54,176 nucleotides of DNA. Source: a virus. Lineage: Duplodnaviria > Heunggongvirae > Uroviricota > Caudoviricetes. Shown here one piece after another: positions 3,610 to 18,369 of this stretch. The notes beneath the pieces were generated by a model that saw nothing but the letters and a program-made list of their open reading frames with translations, was not told the DNA's origin and ran no database searches. Both the position numbers and the translations under genes were made by a program. The DNA is taken from the IMG/VR virus record IMGVR_UViG_2563366830_000017, positions 1-54,176 of that record. One strand, 5' to 3'. Position 1 is the stretch's first letter. Each line of letters begins with the position of its first letter.

Positions 3610-4185
3610 TCACCCATCTTGCTGCGGTGCTACTATTGAAAAGTACTCACACCCTTTAGCCCAAATAGTTTTGATAGTTGTCCAACTGACTGGAACCTTG
3701 ATTTCGATTCTTCCGCTGCCGTCACAAGTTTCGCAATCATCATCACCAAAGCATTCCGGGCAGCTTATAAACGTAGTTTCTGAAAATTCACCGGATAGCA
3801 CACCCTTAGCGCCGTTCTCAGCGGTTAGTTTCTTCGGCACTATAACCCAACCATCCGGAGTTACCGGAGAATTGCCATTTATATCGAAGTTTGGCTCTGC
3901 GTCCTGAACCAGGAGGATGTAACCATTCTTGGCAGTATCAAGTTCTAACGCCTCGGTGACGGTACCGAAATAGCGATTACCTAAATCCGCATCACAAGTG
4001 CTTACATCAATGGAAACCTCCATGCCTTCGATTAATTCTGGCAAGTTGTAAGTTTGGCTTACAGGTTCTGCTCCCAGTGATGCCAGTGCAATTCGTGCCA
4101 GTTCCATTTGTTCGCCACGAGTAAGCCCGTTTTCAAGCGGATTTTTAATGAACAATTCAATACGTTCTTTGGTAATAGTGGTCAT
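3610..4185 (-). CDS. Hypothetical protein with C-terminal Cys-rich motif (CPECFGDDDCETCDGSG)
   Basis: 191-aa ORF, tightly packed in minus-strand operon; zinc-ribbon-like CxxC...CxxC spacing seen in translation. Confidence 0.55.
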   Translation of the reverse strand: MTTITKERIELFIKNPLENGLTRGEQMELARIALASLGAEPVSQTYNLPELIEGMEVSIDVSTCDADLGNRYFGTVTEALELDTAKNGYILLVQDAEPNFDINGNSPVTPDGWVIVPKKLTAENGAKGVLSGEFSETTFISCPECFGDDDCETCDGSGRIEIKVPVSWTTIKTIWAKGCEYFSIVAPQQDG

Positions 4186-4195
4186 TTGTTAGTCC

Positions 4196-4993
4196 TTAAA
4201 CTGCTAGTTGCAATTGCATTTCAAAGCGGTCGCGTTGTTCACAATACGCAAGAGAACCAGGGCTATTGTGTGCCTCAATCCGTTCTACCATTAATGCTGC
4301 GCGTGTCTCTTTACTTGCAGGTGCATAAGCCCCAGACCAGGCTTTATCAATACCGATGTTTCGAGCGACGTTCGTACTATCTGCGCTGGCTAAGGGTAAT
4401 TTTGTGAATATCAGCGGATTTAACATGCGCAATCCATGTAGTTTCGTAACCGGCTGACCATGCCCATCAACAATGTGACGAATCAGGTCTTTCATTCTGG
4501 CTACCGCAAGAGTTGGGCGCTTTACGTCATAGTCGCCACAACTACCGATAGCCACTCGCGGAAACTCATTGCACAAATGAATAAATCGCTCGTCACTTTC
4601 ATTCATGTGCCACACTGGAACGCCAGCTAGTTTTCCGTGAGGCCACTCATTCAGAAGCGCATCATTTTCCTCCTCTCCGCCATCAATAACATCCGGGATA
4701 ATGGCAAAATCGAATCCTGGGTGATTCTTCCAGCGAGCAACAAACTCGTAGTAATCGCTCCAGTCGATTTTGTTTTTGCCAGCTGCTTTCCAGGCGGTGA
4801 ATGCACCGTTGTCCAGCGCGAACGACTGACAGTATTCAGTCGCGAGATTGATCTGGCCTGAATGCGCAAAACTGATAAACGCATGTCGCCCTTTCCATGC
4901 TCTCATTGCGCACGTATCAGGAGTAATAGGCCCACCGTGGTAGTGAATCATCTCACTCTCCTTTGATGCGAATGCCAGTAGCGCGGATTGCAT
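4196..4993 (-). CDS. Hypothetical protein (265 aa), b-region accessory gene
   Basis: Long ORF in operon with neighbours; no family confidently recognised. Confidence 0.55.
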   Translation of the reverse strand: MQSALLAFASKESEMIHYHGGPITPDTCAMRAWKGRHAFISFAHSGQINLATEYCQSFALDNGAFTAWKAAGKNKIDWSDYYEFVARWKNHPGFDFAIIPDVIDGGEEENDALLNEWPHGKLAGVPVWHMNESDERFIHLCNEFPRVAIGSCGDYDVKRPTLAVARMKDLIRHIVDGHGQPVTKLHGLRMLNPLIFTKLPLASADSTNVARNIGIDKAWSGAYAPASKETRAALMVERIEAHNSPGSLAYCEQRDRFEMQLQLAV

Positions 4994-8838: not shown

Positions 8839-9219
8839 TCAGTCAGCCCAACCTGATTTCGAGTTTATTTGGGTTTCTGACATTGTGTATTTCTTAATCG
8901 TGTCATCGTTAAAAAGAATAGTAAGTTCTTTTTTCGTACCGTTCGTTCCATTATGGAATAATCCATAGAATGGAATAAAAGTGGTGCCATTAACTTTTAC
9001 TTTTGCAAAGGCGTACTTCCAGATCTCGTTTCCACTGTCAGTATATGAAACAGCATCAGGAGAACCAAAGTAAGATTTAACCTCATTCTTGGTTGTTTTA
9101 CCTTCCTGAAGTTTAGACTGGACACTAATTTCAGTTTCATTTTTGAGTTGCTGGTTGCCTGAAGAAGCACACCCAGCCAATACAGATGCCATCATGGCAG
9201 CGATTAGGATTTTTCTCAT
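8839..9219 (-). CDS. Lipoprotein (signal peptide plus lipobox Cys), moron between immunity gene and pL
   Basis: MRKILIAAMMASVLAGCASS lipoprotein signal; AT-rich relative to neighbours; own terminator. Confidence 0.7.
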   Translation of the reverse strand: MRKILIAAMMASVLAGCASSGNQQLKNETEISVQSKLQEGKTTKNEVKSYFGSPDAVSYTDSGNEIWKYAFAKVKVNGTTFIPFYGLFHNGTNGTKKELTILFNDDTIKKYTMSETQINSKSGWAD

Positions 9220-9448: not shown

Positions 9449-10138
9449 TTAACCATGCTTCCTGTACGTCTGCGGCATGCTTCCAATGACCTTACCGAAT
9501 ATGAACACCCGGTTCATCTCGTCTTTCTCGATCGGGTCCCACGGCGAGTAGCTCTTGTTATCAGAGATAACCAGCAGCTTATCCTTCATCATTTGAAGAC
9601 GTTTTACATGGGCAGTGTCGTCGTACAGAAACGCATAGATGCCATCACCGTCGAAAGATTTAACAGTGATATCAACGAACAGCAGGTCACCTGGTTCGAT
9701 CGTCCCTGACATGCTGTCACCTCGCACGTTAATGATGCGGATATTTTCCGCCTTCCTGCCATCGAACATGTGACGAGCATCGTCAAACGAGTACTCAACC
9801 GAGCGTAGAACTTCTACAAACTCACGGTTGATTACACCTGGCCCGGCACTGACTTCTATATCAAGAACGTCAATTTTGAAGTATTTGGAATGGCTGACAG
9901 TTGATTGTATTGGTTGCACTGTACTGTCTGACATATTTCCAACGCCAGAAGATAACCATTCTGCGCGCACACCCAAAGCGTTCGCGATCTCCACGATTTT
10001 AGTTGTTTGGTTAGCTTTCCCTGTTTCGATTTTCTGAATAGCAGCTTGGCTAACCCCGACCAAATCCCCAAGCGCCTTTTGTGTAAGGCCTCGCGCTAAT
10101 CTGGCTTCTTTAAGTCTTTCTGAGAGTGTTGTTTTCAT
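9449..10138 (-). CDS. cI: CI-type repressor (HTH-XRE N-domain plus LexA/S24 peptidase-like C-domain)
   Basis: 229-aa ORF; N-terminal LTQKALGDLVGVSQAAIQKIETGK HTH; C-terminal S24-like region; divergent from cro; not lambda immunity. Confidence 0.85.
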   Translation of the reverse strand: MKTTLSERLKEARLARGLTQKALGDLVGVSQAAIQKIETGKANQTTKIVEIANALGVRAEWLSSGVGNMSDSTVQPIQSTVSHSKYFKIDVLDIEVSAGPGVINREFVEVLRSVEYSFDDARHMFDGRKAENIRIINVRGDSMSGTIEPGDLLFVDITVKSFDGDGIYAFLYDDTAHVKRLQMMKDKLLVISDNKSYSPWDPIEKDEMNRVFIFGKVIGSMPQTYRKHG

Positions 10139-10542: not shown

Positions 10543-11082
10543 ATGCAACCACTTACATACCAACAGACTAGCGGATTTATTCCGACTGCGGTGATAAATC
10601 GTTCTCAAACAAAACAAGCTCCAGGCCACGAAAAAATCCGTGATGCCGTCCGCGCCTGGTCGGCTGTAGATAATCAGGATGTCGTTGCCGCACTCATTGT
10701 GAATGAGTATCGGGAGCAGGGCGACGGCACCATCGATTTCCCTGATGATGTCAGCCGTGCACGCCAGAAGCTGTTCCGCTTCCTCGATAACAAATTCGAT
10801 TCTGAAAAATACCGAAATAACGTGCGTGAACTGACCCCGGCAATTCTGGCGGTACTACCGCTGGAATATCGCGGTTACCTGGTTGAGCAGGATAGCTTCA
10901 TGACTCGGTTGGCTGAAATGGAAAAGGAACTCAGTGAGGCAAAACAGGCTGTCATTCTCAACGCACCACGCCACCAGAAACTGAAGGAAATGAGTGAAGG
11001 TATTGTGTCGATGTTTCGTGTGGACCCGGATCTGGCTGGTCCATTAATGGCGATGGTGACCACCATGCTGGGGGCAATATGA
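10543..11082 (+). CDS. Protein in cII position (179 aa), possible CII-analog/YdaT-like regulator
   Basis: Position between cro and O; not lambda CII by sequence; family assignment tentative. Confidence 0.5.
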   Translation: MQPLTYQQTSGFIPTAVINRSQTKQAPGHEKIRDAVRAWSAVDNQDVVAALIVNEYREQGDGTIDFPDDVSRARQKLFRFLDNKFDSEKYRNNVRELTPAILAVLPLEYRGYLVEQDSFMTRLAEMEKELSEAKQAVILNAPRHQKLKEMSEGIVSMFRVDPDLAGPLMAMVTTMLGAI

Positions 11083-11168
11083 CAGGTTCAGAAATGGCGA
11101 AAGTCGGTCTGCGGGAACAGAACCGACTTTCAGGTGCAAATCGTAACACACTCATTGCGGGAGGAATT

Positions 11169-12098
11169 ATGGCAAACACTGCTGAGATATTCAATTTTCC
11201 AGTGCCGGATGCGGCACAAAAGGAGCCGCGCGTGGCAGATCTCGATGATGGTTATACGCGCATTGCAAATGAGTTGCTGGAAGCTGTGATGCTGGCCGGA
11301 TTAACACAGCACCAGCTTCTGGTCTTCCTGGCTGTCATGCGCAAAACATATGGCTTTAATAAAAAACTGGATTGGGTGAGCAACGAGCAACTTTCCGAGT
11401 TGACCGGGATATTGCCGCACAAGTGTTCTGCTGCAAAAAGCGTTCTGGTAAAGCGTGGGATTCTTATTCAGAGCGGGCGGAATATCGGCATTAATAATGT
11501 GGTCAGTGAATGGTCAACATTCCCCGAATCAGGTAAGAAAAATAAAGTTTACCTGAAAGAGGTAAATTTACCTGAATCAGGTAAGAAAAGTTTACCCAAA
11601 TCAGGTAAAGGCGTTTACCCGAATCAGGTAAACACAAAAGACAAACTAACAAAAGACAATATAAAACCTTTTTCGTCCGAGAATTCTGGCGAATCCTCTG
11701 ACCAACCAGAAAACGATCTTCCTGTGGAGAAACCAGATGCTGCAATTCAGAGCGGCAGCAGGTGGGGGACAGCAGAAGACCTGACCGCCGCAGAGTGGAT
11801 GTTTGACATGGTGAAGACCATCGCGCCATCAGCCAGAAAACCGAATTTTGCAGGGTGGGCTAACGATATCCGCCTGATGCGTGAACGTGACGGACGTAAC
11901 CACCGCGACATGTGCGTGCTGTTCCGCTGGGCATGCCAGGACAACTTCTGGTCCGGTAACGTGCTAAGTCCGGCCAAACTCCGCGACAAGTGGACCCAAC
12001 TCGAAATCAACCGTAACAAGCAACAGGCTGGCGTGACAGCCGGAAAATCAAAACTCGACCTGACAAACACTGACTGGATTTATGGGGTGGATTTATGA
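11169..12098 (+). CDS. O: Replication initiator O (lambda O family)
   Basis: ATG with GGAGGA RBS; internal iterons; C-terminal region lambda-O-like; followed by P. Confidence 0.85.
   Translation: MANTAEIFNFPVPDAAQKEPRVADLDDGYTRIANELLEAVMLAGLTQHQLLVFLAVMRKTYGFNKKLDWVSNEQLSELTGILPHKCSAAKSVLVKRGILIQSGRNIGINNVVSEWSTFPESGKKNKVYLKEVNLPESGKKSLPKSGKGVYPNQVNTKDKLTKDNIKPFSSENSGESSDQPENDLPVEKPDAAIQSGSRWGTAEDLTAAEWMFDMVKTIAPSARKPNFAGWANDIRLMRERDGRNHRDMCVLFRWACQDNFWSGNVLSPAKLRDKWTQLEINRNKQQAGVTAGKSKLDLTNTDWIYGVDL
11520..11625. repeat. ori: Origin iterons inside O (four copies of GAATCAGGTAA-containing repeat)
   Basis: Direct repeats TCCCCGAATCAGGTAAGAAAA / TACCTGAATCAGGTAAGAAAAG / ACCCAAATCAGGTAAAGG / ACCCGAATCAGGTAAACAC read in sequence. 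Confidence 0.8.
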
Positions 12099-12796
12099 AA
12101 AACATCGCCGCACAGATGGTTAACTTTGACCGTGAGCAGATGCGCCGGATCGCCAACAACATGCCGGAACAGTACGACGAAAAGCCGCAGGTACAGCAGG
12201 TAGCGCGGATCATCAACGGTGTGTTCAGCCAGTTACTGGCAACTTTCCCGGCGAGCCTGGCTAACCGGGACCAGAACGAACTGAACGAAATCCGCCGCCA
12301 GTGGGTTCTGGCTTTCCGGGAAAACGGGATCACCACAATGGAACAGGTTAACGCAGGAATGCGCGTAGCCCGTCGGCAGAATCGACCATTCCTGCCATCA
12401 CCCGGGCAGTTTGTCGCCTGGTGCCGGGAAGAAGCATCCGTTACCGCCGGACTGCCAAACGCCAGCGAGCTGGTTGATATGGTTTACGAGTATTGCCGGA
12501 AGCGTGGCCTGTATCCGGACGCAGAGTCTTATCCATGGAAATCAAACGCGCACTACTGGTTGGTTACCAACCTGTACCAGAACATGCGGGCCAATGCGCT
12601 GACTGACGCGGAATTACGGCGTAAAGCTGCCGATGAGCTGACCTGTATGACCGCGCGAATTAACCGTGGTGAGGCGATACCTGAACCAGTAAAACAACTT
12701 CCTGTCATGGGCGGTAGGCCTCTAAATCGTGCACAGGCTCTGGCGAAGATCGCAGAAATCAAAGCGAAGTTCGGACTGAAAGGAGCAACTGTATGA
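12095..12796 (+). CDS. P: Replication protein P (DnaB helicase loader)
   Basis: 233-aa ORF MKNIAAQMVNFDREQMRRIANNMPEQYDEKPQVQQVA... matches lambda P. Confidence 0.97.
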   Translation: MKNIAAQMVNFDREQMRRIANNMPEQYDEKPQVQQVARIINGVFSQLLATFPASLANRDQNELNEIRRQWVLAFRENGITTMEQVNAGMRVARRQNRPFLPSPGQFVAWCREEASVTAGLPNASELVDMVYEYCRKRGLYPDAESYPWKSNAHYWLVTNLYQNMRANALTDAELRRKAADELTCMTARINRGEAIPEPVKQLPVMGGRPLNRAQALAKIAEIKAKFGLKGATV

Positions 12797-13112: not shown

Positions 13113-13607
13113 ATGAGAAAATTTATTATAGCCTTTGTCATAAGTGCCTCGTTTACTGCAAATGCTGGTGTAGAGAAGTTAGGGTCGTGGATAACAAAGT
13201 CTGAGATAAATAAAATGACTGACCAGACTGACTTTGTGGCTCTTAATTTATCACCAGATTCATATAACAAAGCAGGTACTGATCGTGCAACTTCACTGGT
13301 GTTGCGTTGTAGTGATAACAAAACAGATGCCTATTTATCATTCAATGATTATATGGGTTCGGACAACCCAAGAATTACAGTGCGGTTAGATGGCGGAAAG
13401 CCGGTCAAGAGTGCTTGGGGAGGTGGGGAAGGCGGTGATTCTGCATTTGCTCCACAACCAATACAATTTATAAAGACCTTGGCTAAGCATAAAAAAGCTA
13501 TTTTTGGGTTTGAACCTTATGGATCAACTATGCAAGTAGTTGAGTTTGACTTGTCTGAGATTGATAAGGTTGTGGAAAAAATTTCACAGTCTTGCAATTG
13601 GAAATGA
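13113..13607 (+). CDS. Secreted hypothetical protein (signal peptide), AT-rich moron
   Basis: MRKFIIAFVISASFTANA signal peptide; own downstream terminator; not part of canonical lambda nin region. Confidence 0.65.
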   Translation: MRKFIIAFVISASFTANAGVEKLGSWITKSEINKMTDQTDFVALNLSPDSYNKAGTDRATSLVLRCSDNKTDAYLSFNDYMGSDNPRITVRLDGGKPVKSAWGGGEGGDSAFAPQPIQFIKTLAKHKKAIFGFEPYGSTMQVVEFDLSEIDKVVEKISQSCNWK

Positions 13608-13624
13608 CAAAAAAATTTCATATG

Positions 13625-13651
13625 AACCCAGTTGGCGCTGGGTTTTTTATT
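13625..13651 (+). terminator. Rho-independent terminator
   Basis: AACCCAG-TTGGCG-CTGGGTT hairpin followed by TTTTTTATTT. Confidence 0.7.
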
Positions 13652-14244
13652 TCAGTAGCCAATAATGCATTCAAAATCTCTTACTTGAGAAACGGCCTAT
13701 TTGAGATTTCAGTCGTGGCAGGATGATCAGTTGATTCGAGTATTGACGCATTTGCGTTCGGAGCGATTACAGTAGATTGTAAATAATAATGAGAAACACA
13801 TAGCCACATAGCCACCCCGTGGTATTGAAACCATATAATGTTGGATTTGAAAACAGATCTTTTCCCATGTATTAATAACTACATCCCCGCGAGTGATTCA
13901 AAAAGGAGGGCCCAATTTTGTCCGAGTTTTTGTATTCCCCCGCATGCCGCTGCGGAGCACTACATCTGAGTGTCTGACTAGGGGATAAAATTAGACTGGA
14001 TAGTGAGAAGAAAGTGGCGCGCTAGGCTGTGCCGAGTGCTACCAGTACACCTTGGGGGTGTGCAGCTTTCGCCGAGACTGTAGTGGGTATCGGTTAATGC
14101 ACGAAAAACCGAGAGGTCAGACAACCAATTTGCCGTAGGATTGTTTCCGGTGCGATACCGGTCTACTAACTGAAAGCAATGCGAAAAAGCATAAACTCGG
14201 TCCTTCAGTCGCCCTACACACTATTTACTAAGAAGGGCTGAAGC

Positions 14245-14445
14245 ATGGATACAATTATTACATGGATGGGAGATCGTCTGTTGGGGGGGACACAAAAATC
14301 CGATCTGCAGCAGATGGCGATCACTGGATTAACTTCCGCGATTTGTTCAACAATTTTGTACACTGAAAAATTAAAACATGGTGAGCCTATTAACCCAAAC
14401 GAAGAAGAAAAACTTTATAGGCTTTGGTATGAAGGAAACGCTTGA
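14245..14445 (+). CDS. Hypothetical small ORF (66 aa), coding status doubtful
   Basis: Only ORF of 60 aa or more in a ~1-kb stretch; no recognised features. Confidence 0.25.
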   Translation: MDTIITWMGDRLLGGTQKSDLQQMAITGLTSAICSTILYTEKLKHGEPINPNEEEKLYRLWYEGNA

Positions 14446-14651
14446 AAGAATAAAGCACAATTAAAACCTTTGATTTGCGATAATCAACTTGCCATAATTA
14501 AGTAATCGGAGCCTGAACAACTCCGGTGACTTCTGCGCTAAACGGGGACGTTTATGCGCACATACAATCCAAACTATCTTCTCCTTTCACAGATGCAGAA
14601 ATGCACCTGCAATTCTTTGCATCTAGCGTTTGACCTCTGTGGAGGTGAAGC

Positions 14652-15107
14652 GTGAACCTCCCACAAGATGGCATCAAATTGCATCGCGGTAACTTCACCG
14701 CTATCGGTCAGCAGATCCAGCCTTATCTGGAAGACGGCAAATGCTTTCGCATGGTGCTTAAACCGTGGCGAGAGAGACGCAGTCTTTCCCAGAATGCACT
14801 CAGCCACATGTGGTACAGCGAAATCAGTGAATACCTCATCAGCAGGGGGAAATCGTTCGCTACCGCAGCATGGGTAAAAGATGCTCTCAAACACACATAC
14901 CTCGGTTATGAAACCAAGGACCTGGTTGATGTCGTAACCGGCGAAATCACTACTATCCAGTCGTTACGCCATACCTCCGATCTTGATACCGGAGAGATGT
15001 ATGTCTTCCTGTGTAAGGTTGAAGCCTGGGCGATGAATATTGGCTGCCACCTGACTATTCCGCAGAGCTGCGAGTTCCAGCTGCTGCGCGACAAGCAGGA
15101 GGCGTAA
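14652..15107 (+). CDS. ninB: NinB-like recombination protein (YbcN-like)
   Basis: 151 aa; [12 protein letters not shown] resembles NinB RSLDQN motif; position at start of nin region. Confidence 0.65.
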
Positions 15108-17797: not shown

Positions 17798-18369
17798 CGT
17801 GAGCCCTTTTTTTGAACTATTATTAAAAAATGATGTCACTGCGCGATAAATATTCATCTAATCAATGTGATTATTTCAAGATGTAAGTTTTGGTTTCTCG
17901 TTTGATTTGTGAAGTAGATCTCTATTTTTATCTGAACTTTTTTCTATCGAATCCTATTCATGGCTCTTGGCTGAATAAAAATAAATCTATTAGCCAATTT
18001 ATATTAATGGCTGTTATTTATAAGTGCTCTATAATTTGAAGGTTCAATTTAAATCGGCTAAAAATAACGCTGGAAATTATTTGTTGGTTATTTGTTGAGA
18101 TTTGCTTATGTATTTGTAGTGGTGTTTTCAATACTCGGTAGCATTCTCGCAAATATCATTTAGTGGTTTACGTACGTAAAAAATTGGTTATGCTGTTAAG
18201 AGTGGTTACTTCGTCACACAGCTTAAACCCGCCGTCGAGCGGGTTTTTCCATTTTTTGAGTCTCGATATTAGCTGATAACCCAATACCTGAGTTATTCAC
18301 TGACTCCGAGTCTGTTACGTTTCGTAGTATTCCCTCAATTTACACCCGCTTTGTCTGCGAGGTGGGGTT

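Follow-up and report, generated by a model that had tools for sequence, protein, structure and literature searches.

The window analyzed here, a 54,176-nucleotide (nt) stretch of viral DNA from IMG/VR (record IMGVR_UViG_2563366830_000017), is a lambda-like (DLP12-type) E. coli prophage in which open reading frames (ORFs) of at least 60 amino acids (aa) cover 91% of the 54 kb. The longest stretch without such an ORF in any of the six frames, 13608-14244 (637 bp), lies between the replication genes and the nin genes, and within it we found a non-coding module on the plus strand (13883-14213) that is very probably a structured RNA gene. An initial annotation of the window had described 13652-14244 as free of such ORFs, which is true, the actual extent being somewhat larger, and had offered three explanations: a structured non-coding RNA, a degraded gene remnant, or a regulatory leader for the downstream small ORF and the nin genes. 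The gap proved to be composite, so that two of these three explanations are right, each for a different part. It consists of a gene remnant (13689-13775), a promoter-like region (13823-13882) and the non-coding module, and its GC content is 45% as a whole, 50% in the RNA part and 38% upstream of the RNA part. The two features of the RNA gene are as follows.

13823-13882, plus strand: promoter-like region, conserved upstream of the RNA, with a -35 element TTGAAA at 13847-13852 and TGtATTAAT at 13868-13876
13883-14213, plus strand: conserved structured non-coding RNA of about 331 nt, from AUCCCCGCGAG to CAGUCGCC, delimited by the border and covariation evidence

The borders of the module emerged from comparison with other phages. 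We queried a phage collection with a 661-bp segment and also with three different variants of the module. Only four phage records matched the 661-bp query, and the same four were returned by the three variant queries. Two of the four are Klebsiella phages, in which the match was limited to 13883-14218 at 79% identity. When the window was aligned with Klebsiella phage Kp4856-1, a block of about 335 nt was 79% identical and the flanks on both sides were unrelated; in that phage, a dATP/dGTP pyrophosphohydrolase gene flanks the block on one side and an unrelated gene of 183 aa on the other.

Searches by sequence pattern in IMG/VR, metagenomes and GTDB representatives, with nhmmer profiles also used, gathered 113 loci (referred to below by their L numbers), which represent about 21 variants below 98.5% identity. 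The carriers were E. coli, Klebsiella phages, Enterobacter pasteurii, Escherichia sp. ESNIH1 and metagenomes. On the species-representative contigs, the first pattern (GAAAGCRATGCGAAAANGCATAAACT) gave no match, and a second pattern found only two species representatives. In every variant the block follows O/P (with small early genes), precedes ninB...Q and has the orientation of the early-right operon. Its immediate neighbors belong to unrelated clusters (TagO-like, roi-like, dATP/dGTP pyrophosphohydrolase, DUF1367, membrane and unknown proteins), the downstream neighbors fall into at least seven unrelated protein clusters, and no conserved protein partner gene was found beside the RNA among the variants.

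The block is present in 159 of 5426 complete E. coli genomes (about 3%), one copy each, and no annotation lies under it in the 159 carrier RefSeq genomes. Over the RNA, 155 of the 159 copies are at least 99% identical, while the 661-bp query, which includes the flanks, is 90-95% identical in 98 genomes. We read this near-identity of the RNA, compared with its flanks, as a sign of selection. The PLSDB plasmid collection contained no match to the block. Two damaged copies were also seen: in L044 (from about 3373 onward) an IS21-family element interrupts the 3' part of the RNA, and in L053 (14181-14428) the first ~95 nt of the RNA are replaced by unrelated sequence. The RNA is thus dispensable for prophage maintenance.

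Among the variants, up to 48 invariant nucleotides in a row alternate with variable segments that covary. RNAalifold, run on 23 non-redundant sequences and supplemented by two closing helices taken from the first alignment, gave a consensus structure of 83 pairs in 17 helices. Standard pairs fill 95.0% of the 1903 pair cells, compared with 31-39% in a slid control in which the 3' partners were shifted by 1-3 columns. The comparative alignment that the initial annotation had recommended as a check for compensatory changes returned 28 pairs changed on both sides (6-11 in the slid controls), 154 compensated cells (15-23 in the slid controls) and a covariation score of 0.309 (0.045-0.081 in the slid controls). 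Results from an earlier set of 26 sequences agreed with these. Several positions show 4-6 pair types, and columns 200-209 include CG, GU, AU, UA, GC and UG, which indicates repeated independent compensation rather than one inherited double change. The strand follows from the 230 G-U cells: on the opposite strand the same pairs drop to 83.7% paired, which places the RNA on the plus strand. The promoter-like element and the terminators described below have this orientation too. The folding energy of the single sequence was unremarkable against shuffles on both strands (z = -0.5 and -0.4), so that the evidence for structure comes from comparison with relatives and not from thermodynamics. The structured-RNA explanation thus holds for 13883-14213, where covariation is strong. 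The elements of the structure are listed below.

13972-14122, plus strand: central domain, closed by the long-range helix H6, with the best-supported helices
13972-13979/14115-14122, plus strand: H6, GUCUGACU with GGUCAGAC, 3 compensatory pairs
14003-14007/14098-14102, plus strand: H8, 2 compensatory pairs
14010-14015/14065-14070, plus strand: H9, 3 compensatory pairs
14016-14043, plus strand: H10-H11 hairpin, with 2 compensatory pairs in H10
14047-14061, plus strand: H12 hairpin, 4 compensatory pairs
14071-14094, plus strand: H13 hairpin, 4 compensatory pairs
14130-14179, plus strand: 3' domain, well supported, with a variable-length hairpin inside H14
14130-14133/14176-14179, plus strand: H14, UUGC with GCAA, 2 compensatory pairs
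14147-14151/14157-14161, plus strand: H16, CCGGU with ACCGG, 3 compensatory pairs; the window variant departs from the consensus here
13889-13892, plus strand: 5' strand of H1, GCGA
13905-13910, plus strand: 5' strand of H2, GGAGGG, which contains a Shine-Dalgarno-like GGAGG
13920-13932, plus strand: 5' strand of H3, GUCCGAGUUUUUG
within 14190-14213, plus strand: 3' strands of H3, H2 and H1 (CAUAAACUCGGU, CCUUC at 14202-14206, and UCGC), from the alignments, at the module end

The closing helices H1-H3 (13889-13932 with 14190-14212) are paired in 85-99% of cells. H2, whose fold-back covers the Shine-Dalgarno-like sequence, is paired in 90% of cells and changes only between G-C and G-U. Since the variation in the closing helices is almost all of this one-sided kind, their support is weaker than that of the central domain, and the end-joining helices H1-H3 are plausible but less secure. 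A potential pseudoknot at the 5' end, AUCCCC/GGGGAU, is paired in 95.6% of cells; being nearly invariant, it is uninformative on whether the pseudoknot forms. In the L072 clade, the variable hairpin of the 3' domain carries a 10-nt insertion with a UACG loop. The stem that the initial annotation had offered as an example, GGTATCGG ... CGATACCGG, does appear in the single-sequence fold but is not kept in relatives, and GGTATCGG/CGATACC was dropped as a functional helix because it is unconserved in the alignments. The comparison instead pairs GGTATCGGT (14086-14094) with GCCGAGACT (14071-14079), and CCGGT/ACCGG (14147-14151/14157-14161) forms a local hairpin.

No sign of protein coding was found in the block. 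The variants differ by indels of 1, 2, 5 and 10 nt, the variable columns number 69, 63 and 74 in the three codon phases (about 111 columns each) and so show no periodicity, and no ORF common to relatives was found across the RNA block in the variant alignment. A mini-ORF behind GGAGG and the open frames on the minus strand were rejected because of frameshifts and the lack of codon periodicity. The record of phage IdasGreatGrand (L002, PP925829.1) annotates "hypothetical proteins" of 43 and 39 aa over the RNA (4144-4275 and 4325-4444 of L002), which are unconserved as ORFs; in the absence of a coding signal in the block, these are most likely annotation over-calls.

The signals that frame the module are conserved as well. 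Upstream, at a fixed distance from ATCCCC, all variants have TTGAA(A/T) or TTGTAT and, after a spacer of 17-18 nt, an A/T-rich hexamer preceded by TG, and the surroundings diverge. From this arrangement, transcription would start at about 13883, with the A at that position. Just 5' of the -35 element (13823-13846) there is an inverted repeat, CCATA-N3-5-TATGG in most variants and GCATG...TATGC in L072, which was also noted in L052 and L057. Since its two arms vary in concert, the repeat may be an operator for a dimeric regulator or form a small hairpin.

Downstream, directly after GUCGCC and within about 10 nt of the module end, 15 of the 23 variants carry a GC-rich hairpin followed by a run of 6-8 U, and the terminator is absent in the other 8. 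Folding of the 3' segment gave the terminator hairpin without a competing antiterminator of comparable strength. GUCGCC, the 3' strand of H1, is partly though weakly complementary in the alignment to the terminator 3' arms GGCGGU or GGUGGU. The window type and two other variants with the same downstream 118-aa gene have no terminator, and the next ORF follows 20-34 nt on; this gene is the one downstream neighbor that has no terminator between itself and the RNA (also in L055, L060 and L066). In the fold of the window variant, CGGUCCUUC (14198-14206) can pair either with the 5' GGAGGGCC, forming H2, or with the Shine-Dalgarno region GAAGGGCUG (about 14232-14240) of the next ORF. A translational switch based on this predicted alternative pairing is possible, but the pairing of CGGUCCUUC with the Shine-Dalgarno region is not kept in other terminator-less variants.

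The neighboring features of the window are as follows.

11079-12098: O, from the ORF list
12095-12796: P, followed by a ren-like ORF
13113-13607, plus strand: TagO/VasI-like moron, secreted, 164 aa, with the name given by PGAP in an identical E. coli locus
13624-13645, plus strand: intrinsic terminator of the TagO/VasI-like moron, from a terminator scan, at the left edge of the gap and outside the RNA module
13689-13775, plus strand: remnant of a roi-like antirepressor gene (Pfam domains Bro-N and P22_AR_C), last 28 codons and stop
14232-14445, plus strand: 66-aa ORF (14245-14445) with its Shine-Dalgarno region GAAGGG, from the ORF lists, no Pfam domain
3' of the gap, in order: the 66-aa ORF (14245-14445), ylcH, ybcN/ninB (14652-15107), ninE, ybcO, rusA, ylcG and quuD (a Q-type antiterminator)

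The product of 13113-13607 is labeled "type VI secretion system-associated protein TagO" by PGAP, and its Pfam VasI match is weak (27.5 bits against a cut-off of 26.5). The gene is carried as a moron with its own terminator within the early-right operon of the lambdoid prophage, and that terminator, named already in the initial annotation, is present at 13624-13645. Phage IdasGreatGrand shares the TagO gene and the downstream sequence with the window and has about 1.9 kb of extra genes between them, which end with a 202-aa roi-like (Bro-N/P22_AR_C) gene (3481-4089 of L002). The remnant in the window reads ETAYLRFQSWQDDQLIRVLTHLRSERLQ, compared with ETAHVKFQPWQDDKWSRVLPHLRSDRLQ at the end of the intact 202-aa gene (20 of 28 residues identical); an in-frame stop at 13686-13688 precedes it, the rest of the roi-like gene is deleted, and from about 13780 on the two sequences are nearly identical. 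Since the remnant matches the C terminus of the intact gene, the first part of the gap is deletion debris: its first ~230 bases consist of the moron terminator's tail and the 3' end of the deleted roi-like gene. On the other side of the RNA, the 66-aa ORF is an internally deleted copy of the 118-aa gene that is intact in IdasGreatGrand (4551-4907 of L002), and the C-terminal end of that gene (MKETLERIKHN) survives in another frame at 14378-14464 on the plus strand.

Two further observations concern other parts of the window. The second-longest stretch without an ORF of at least 60 aa, 17858-18369 (512 bp), lies 3' of the Q gene and porin region, and at Rfam gathering thresholds it contained no match. 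On the minus strand at 8839-9219, between the recombination/early-left genes and the cI-type repressor gene (9449-10138), a 126-aa lipoprotein-like ORF with a cysteine-containing signal peptide is probably another moron.

The initial annotation could not assign the sequence to a known RNA family, and the search with covariance models bore this out. We used Rfam 15, whose 4227 models include GOLLD, ROOL, HEARO, group I/II introns, 6S, RNase P, tmRNA, Sok, c4, IsrK and STnc100. At gathering thresholds there was no match in the whole window, at E values up to 10 there was nothing over 13883-14213 on the plus strand, and five other variants also gave no match. ARAGORN found no tRNA or tmRNA in the window. 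Literature searches by topic and by sequence strings returned no description of the RNA, although bulk phage-RNA catalogues (e.g., PMC10690425), whose supplements lay outside this check, may list it. No mention of it occurs in the papers on Pas small RNAs and Minerva, in the 224-motif and 50-genome surveys or in the phage csRNA catalogue.

The RNA shares several traits with GOLLD and ROOL, which are likewise large and non-coding, have invariant blocks between covarying helices, occur in temperate phages and have no dedicated protein gene beside them. However, it matches neither Rfam model, is two to three times smaller, occurs in lambdoid phages of Enterobacteriaceae rather than in Firmicutes or rumen organisms, and sits at one fixed genomic position (the nin region) and not beside tRNA genes. 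With CsrB and RsmZ, which sequester proteins, it has in common a length of about 330 nt and its own predicted promoter and terminator, a resemblance that we take as no more than a lead. Four GGA motifs are found in nearly all variants, and two of them (AGGGGAU and UUGGAUAG) lie 15 nt apart in a predicted unpaired joiner, which would make CsrA a candidate partner. In contrast to CsrB and RsmZ, there are no repeated GGA hairpins, the motifs are far fewer, and the fold is complex and long-range.

The promoter-like element, the terminator without a competing fold, the unrelated neighbors and the long invariant unpaired stretches together argue for a stand-alone RNA. On balance, we think it probable that the module is an autonomous, moron-like gene of a structured non-coding RNA, which would act in trans through a bound partner. 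Such a gene would have its own sigma-70-type promoter and, in most relatives, its own intrinsic terminator, and within the nin region of lambda-like Enterobacteriaceae prophages it would move as a mosaic module in its own right. Transcription of the RNA in the lysogen would not depend on the pR operon, and its action in trans would consist in holding the partner. This partner would most likely be a protein, of the host or of the phage, that binds the unpaired invariant stretches (for example AGGGGAU...UUGGAUAGUG and GAGAGG), and the covarying helices would be no more than a scaffold. The mechanism itself, action in trans by partner binding, is a tentative proposal drawn from sequence, to which we give somewhat less than an even chance.

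Several points weigh against this interpretation. The orientation and position are the same in all variants, co-directional with the early-right operon between O/P and ninB-Q, which also fits a cis-acting element, and no partner protein is encoded beside the RNA, so that the idea of a binding partner is without direct support. A simple sigma-70 scan flagged the promoter in none of the variants because the -10 element has no consensus A at position 2 (A-11) or T at position 6 (T-7), and we infer the transcript, its ends and its abundance from the sequence. The window variant, which has no terminator, runs into the next ORF, and there the RNA might be no more than the 5' portion of an mRNA. As to the fold, H1-H4 hardly vary and H3 is mismatched in the L113/L114 clade. 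In 500 shuffles the observed values were never reached for four of five measures, but since the sequences are related, shuffle controls overstate the significance, and sliding the partners gives the fairer comparison.

The main rival is a cis-acting leader or sensor, that is, a 5' leader or an internal element of the pR operon whose fold decides between a stop at the terminator and run-on into nin-Q, as in a riboswitch, a T-box or a processive antitermination element. We consider it unlikely, although the constant orientation and position, which we take to correspond to lambda tR2, speak for it. So does the layout, in which a promoter is followed by a multi-helix RNA and then, within about 10 nt and on the strand of the downstream genes, by a terminator; H1-H3 enclose the covarying domains in the way that an end-joining helix closes the structured domain of a riboswitch or T-box leader. 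The partial complementarity of GUCGCC to the terminator arms and, in the window variant, the alternative pairing of the H2 3' strand with the Shine-Dalgarno region of the next ORF can be read in the same way. However, the downstream genes are unrelated among the variants and share no single functional theme, the 3'-segment folds contain no convincing antiterminator, and a third of the variants lack the terminator. A conserved promoter just upstream would be unneeded for an element of the pR operon, and together with a leaky terminator ahead of Q it would be dangerous in the lysogen. The length of 330 nt is also far above that of known put or EAR elements and most aptamers. The put RNA of HK022 is ~70 nt long, has two stem-loops and lies directly downstream of PL and PR. 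Although put RNAs and lambda tR2-tR4 are likewise cis-encoded RNAs or terminators in the early-right operon upstream of Q, the RNA described here (331 nt) has 17 helices and its own predicted promoter, lies after O/P and so differs from the put type in size, fold and position, and no boxA- or boxB-like nut signals were seen in it by eye. Against the dedicated leader proposed in the initial annotation stand the differing neighbors among the variants and the terminators that most of them have; a leader is conceivable in the window variant, where the RNA abuts an ORF without a terminator.

The remaining explanations are each contradicted by a test made here. Simple decay of the whole gap, with no present function, gains from the roi-like remnant, from the internal deletion in the flanking 66-aa ORF and from the ~1.9 kb of genes that IdasGreatGrand has in addition between the TagO gene and this point. 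Yet conservation of 13883-14213 extends across genera and includes compensatory changes, its E. coli copies are nearly identical, and no relative has an intact ORF across it, indels breaking every frame. For this part, decay is refuted by the covariation and by the lack of an ancestral ORF, and for the gap as a whole it is the least probable of all the explanations. An intact gene in relatives, which the initial annotation had named as the outcome pointing to decay, exists for the first ~90 bp only, and its degraded-gene explanation is correct for the 28-codon C-terminal remnant at 13689-13775 and wrong across the RNA. It is likewise very improbable that the locus makes small proteins, whether the 43- and 39-aa ORFs annotated here in the IdasGreatGrand record or a 19-aa peptide from UUG, or that it is a type I toxin mRNA like hok. 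In a way known from fold-back-inhibited toxin mRNAs, H2 pairs the 3' end with a perfect AAGGAGG that stands 8 nt before the UUG at 13918, and hok transcripts too are highly structured prophage RNAs of ~330-400 nt with the Shine-Dalgarno sequence paired to the 3' end. However, the 19-aa frame is cut by stops or frameshifts in L005, L069, L081 and the L072 clade, there are no synonymous changes in its invariant stretch, and both a hydrophobic character of the peptide and codon periodicity are lacking. Unlike the hok family, the locus has no conserved toxin ORF, no Rfam match and no Sok-like antisense partner that we could find, and the scan gave no promoter-like site on the minus strand within the block, although weak promoters would escape it. 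An element acting as DNA, either a folded single-stranded signal (such as a priming or ssi site) or several clustered protein-binding sites, has an equally small chance. It would suit a place just downstream of the replication genes O and P, and the paired regions could form in single-stranded DNA too. The 230 G-U cells, however, would be A-C on the opposite strand, promoter-like and terminator signals frame exactly the conserved block, and features such as the UACG-loop insertion are those of RNA.

The RNA represents a family without a detectable relative among described RNAs. To our knowledge, there are few structured non-coding RNAs longer than 300 nt that show strong covariation and have no function assigned to them, and most of the known ones occur in organisms that are hard to manipulate. 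Because its hosts are E. coli and Klebsiella and because isolated phages (IdasGreatGrand, Turner and Kp4856-1) carry it, this RNA is readily amenable to experiment. In practical terms, about 3% of complete E. coli genomes carry the RNA unannotated, and one phage record hides it under spurious short ORFs.

There is a slim chance that the RNA is a large ligand-, tRNA- or protein-sensing element that sits at the tR2 position and controls whether transcription started at its own promoter or at pR continues into nin-Q, or, equally, a prophage decoy that sequesters a host regulator or immune protein. With either, the most tractable phage-host system would gain a phage RNA of a new functional class, and a sensor would couple a cellular signal to the commitment of the phage to late gene expression. 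In lambda, the terminators that time late gene expression lie between the replication genes and Q. A regulatory RNA at this position would matter for the decision and timing of lysis in temperate phages; a moron RNA expressed in the lysogen would extend, by an RNA, the prophage cargo that alters host physiology or immunity.

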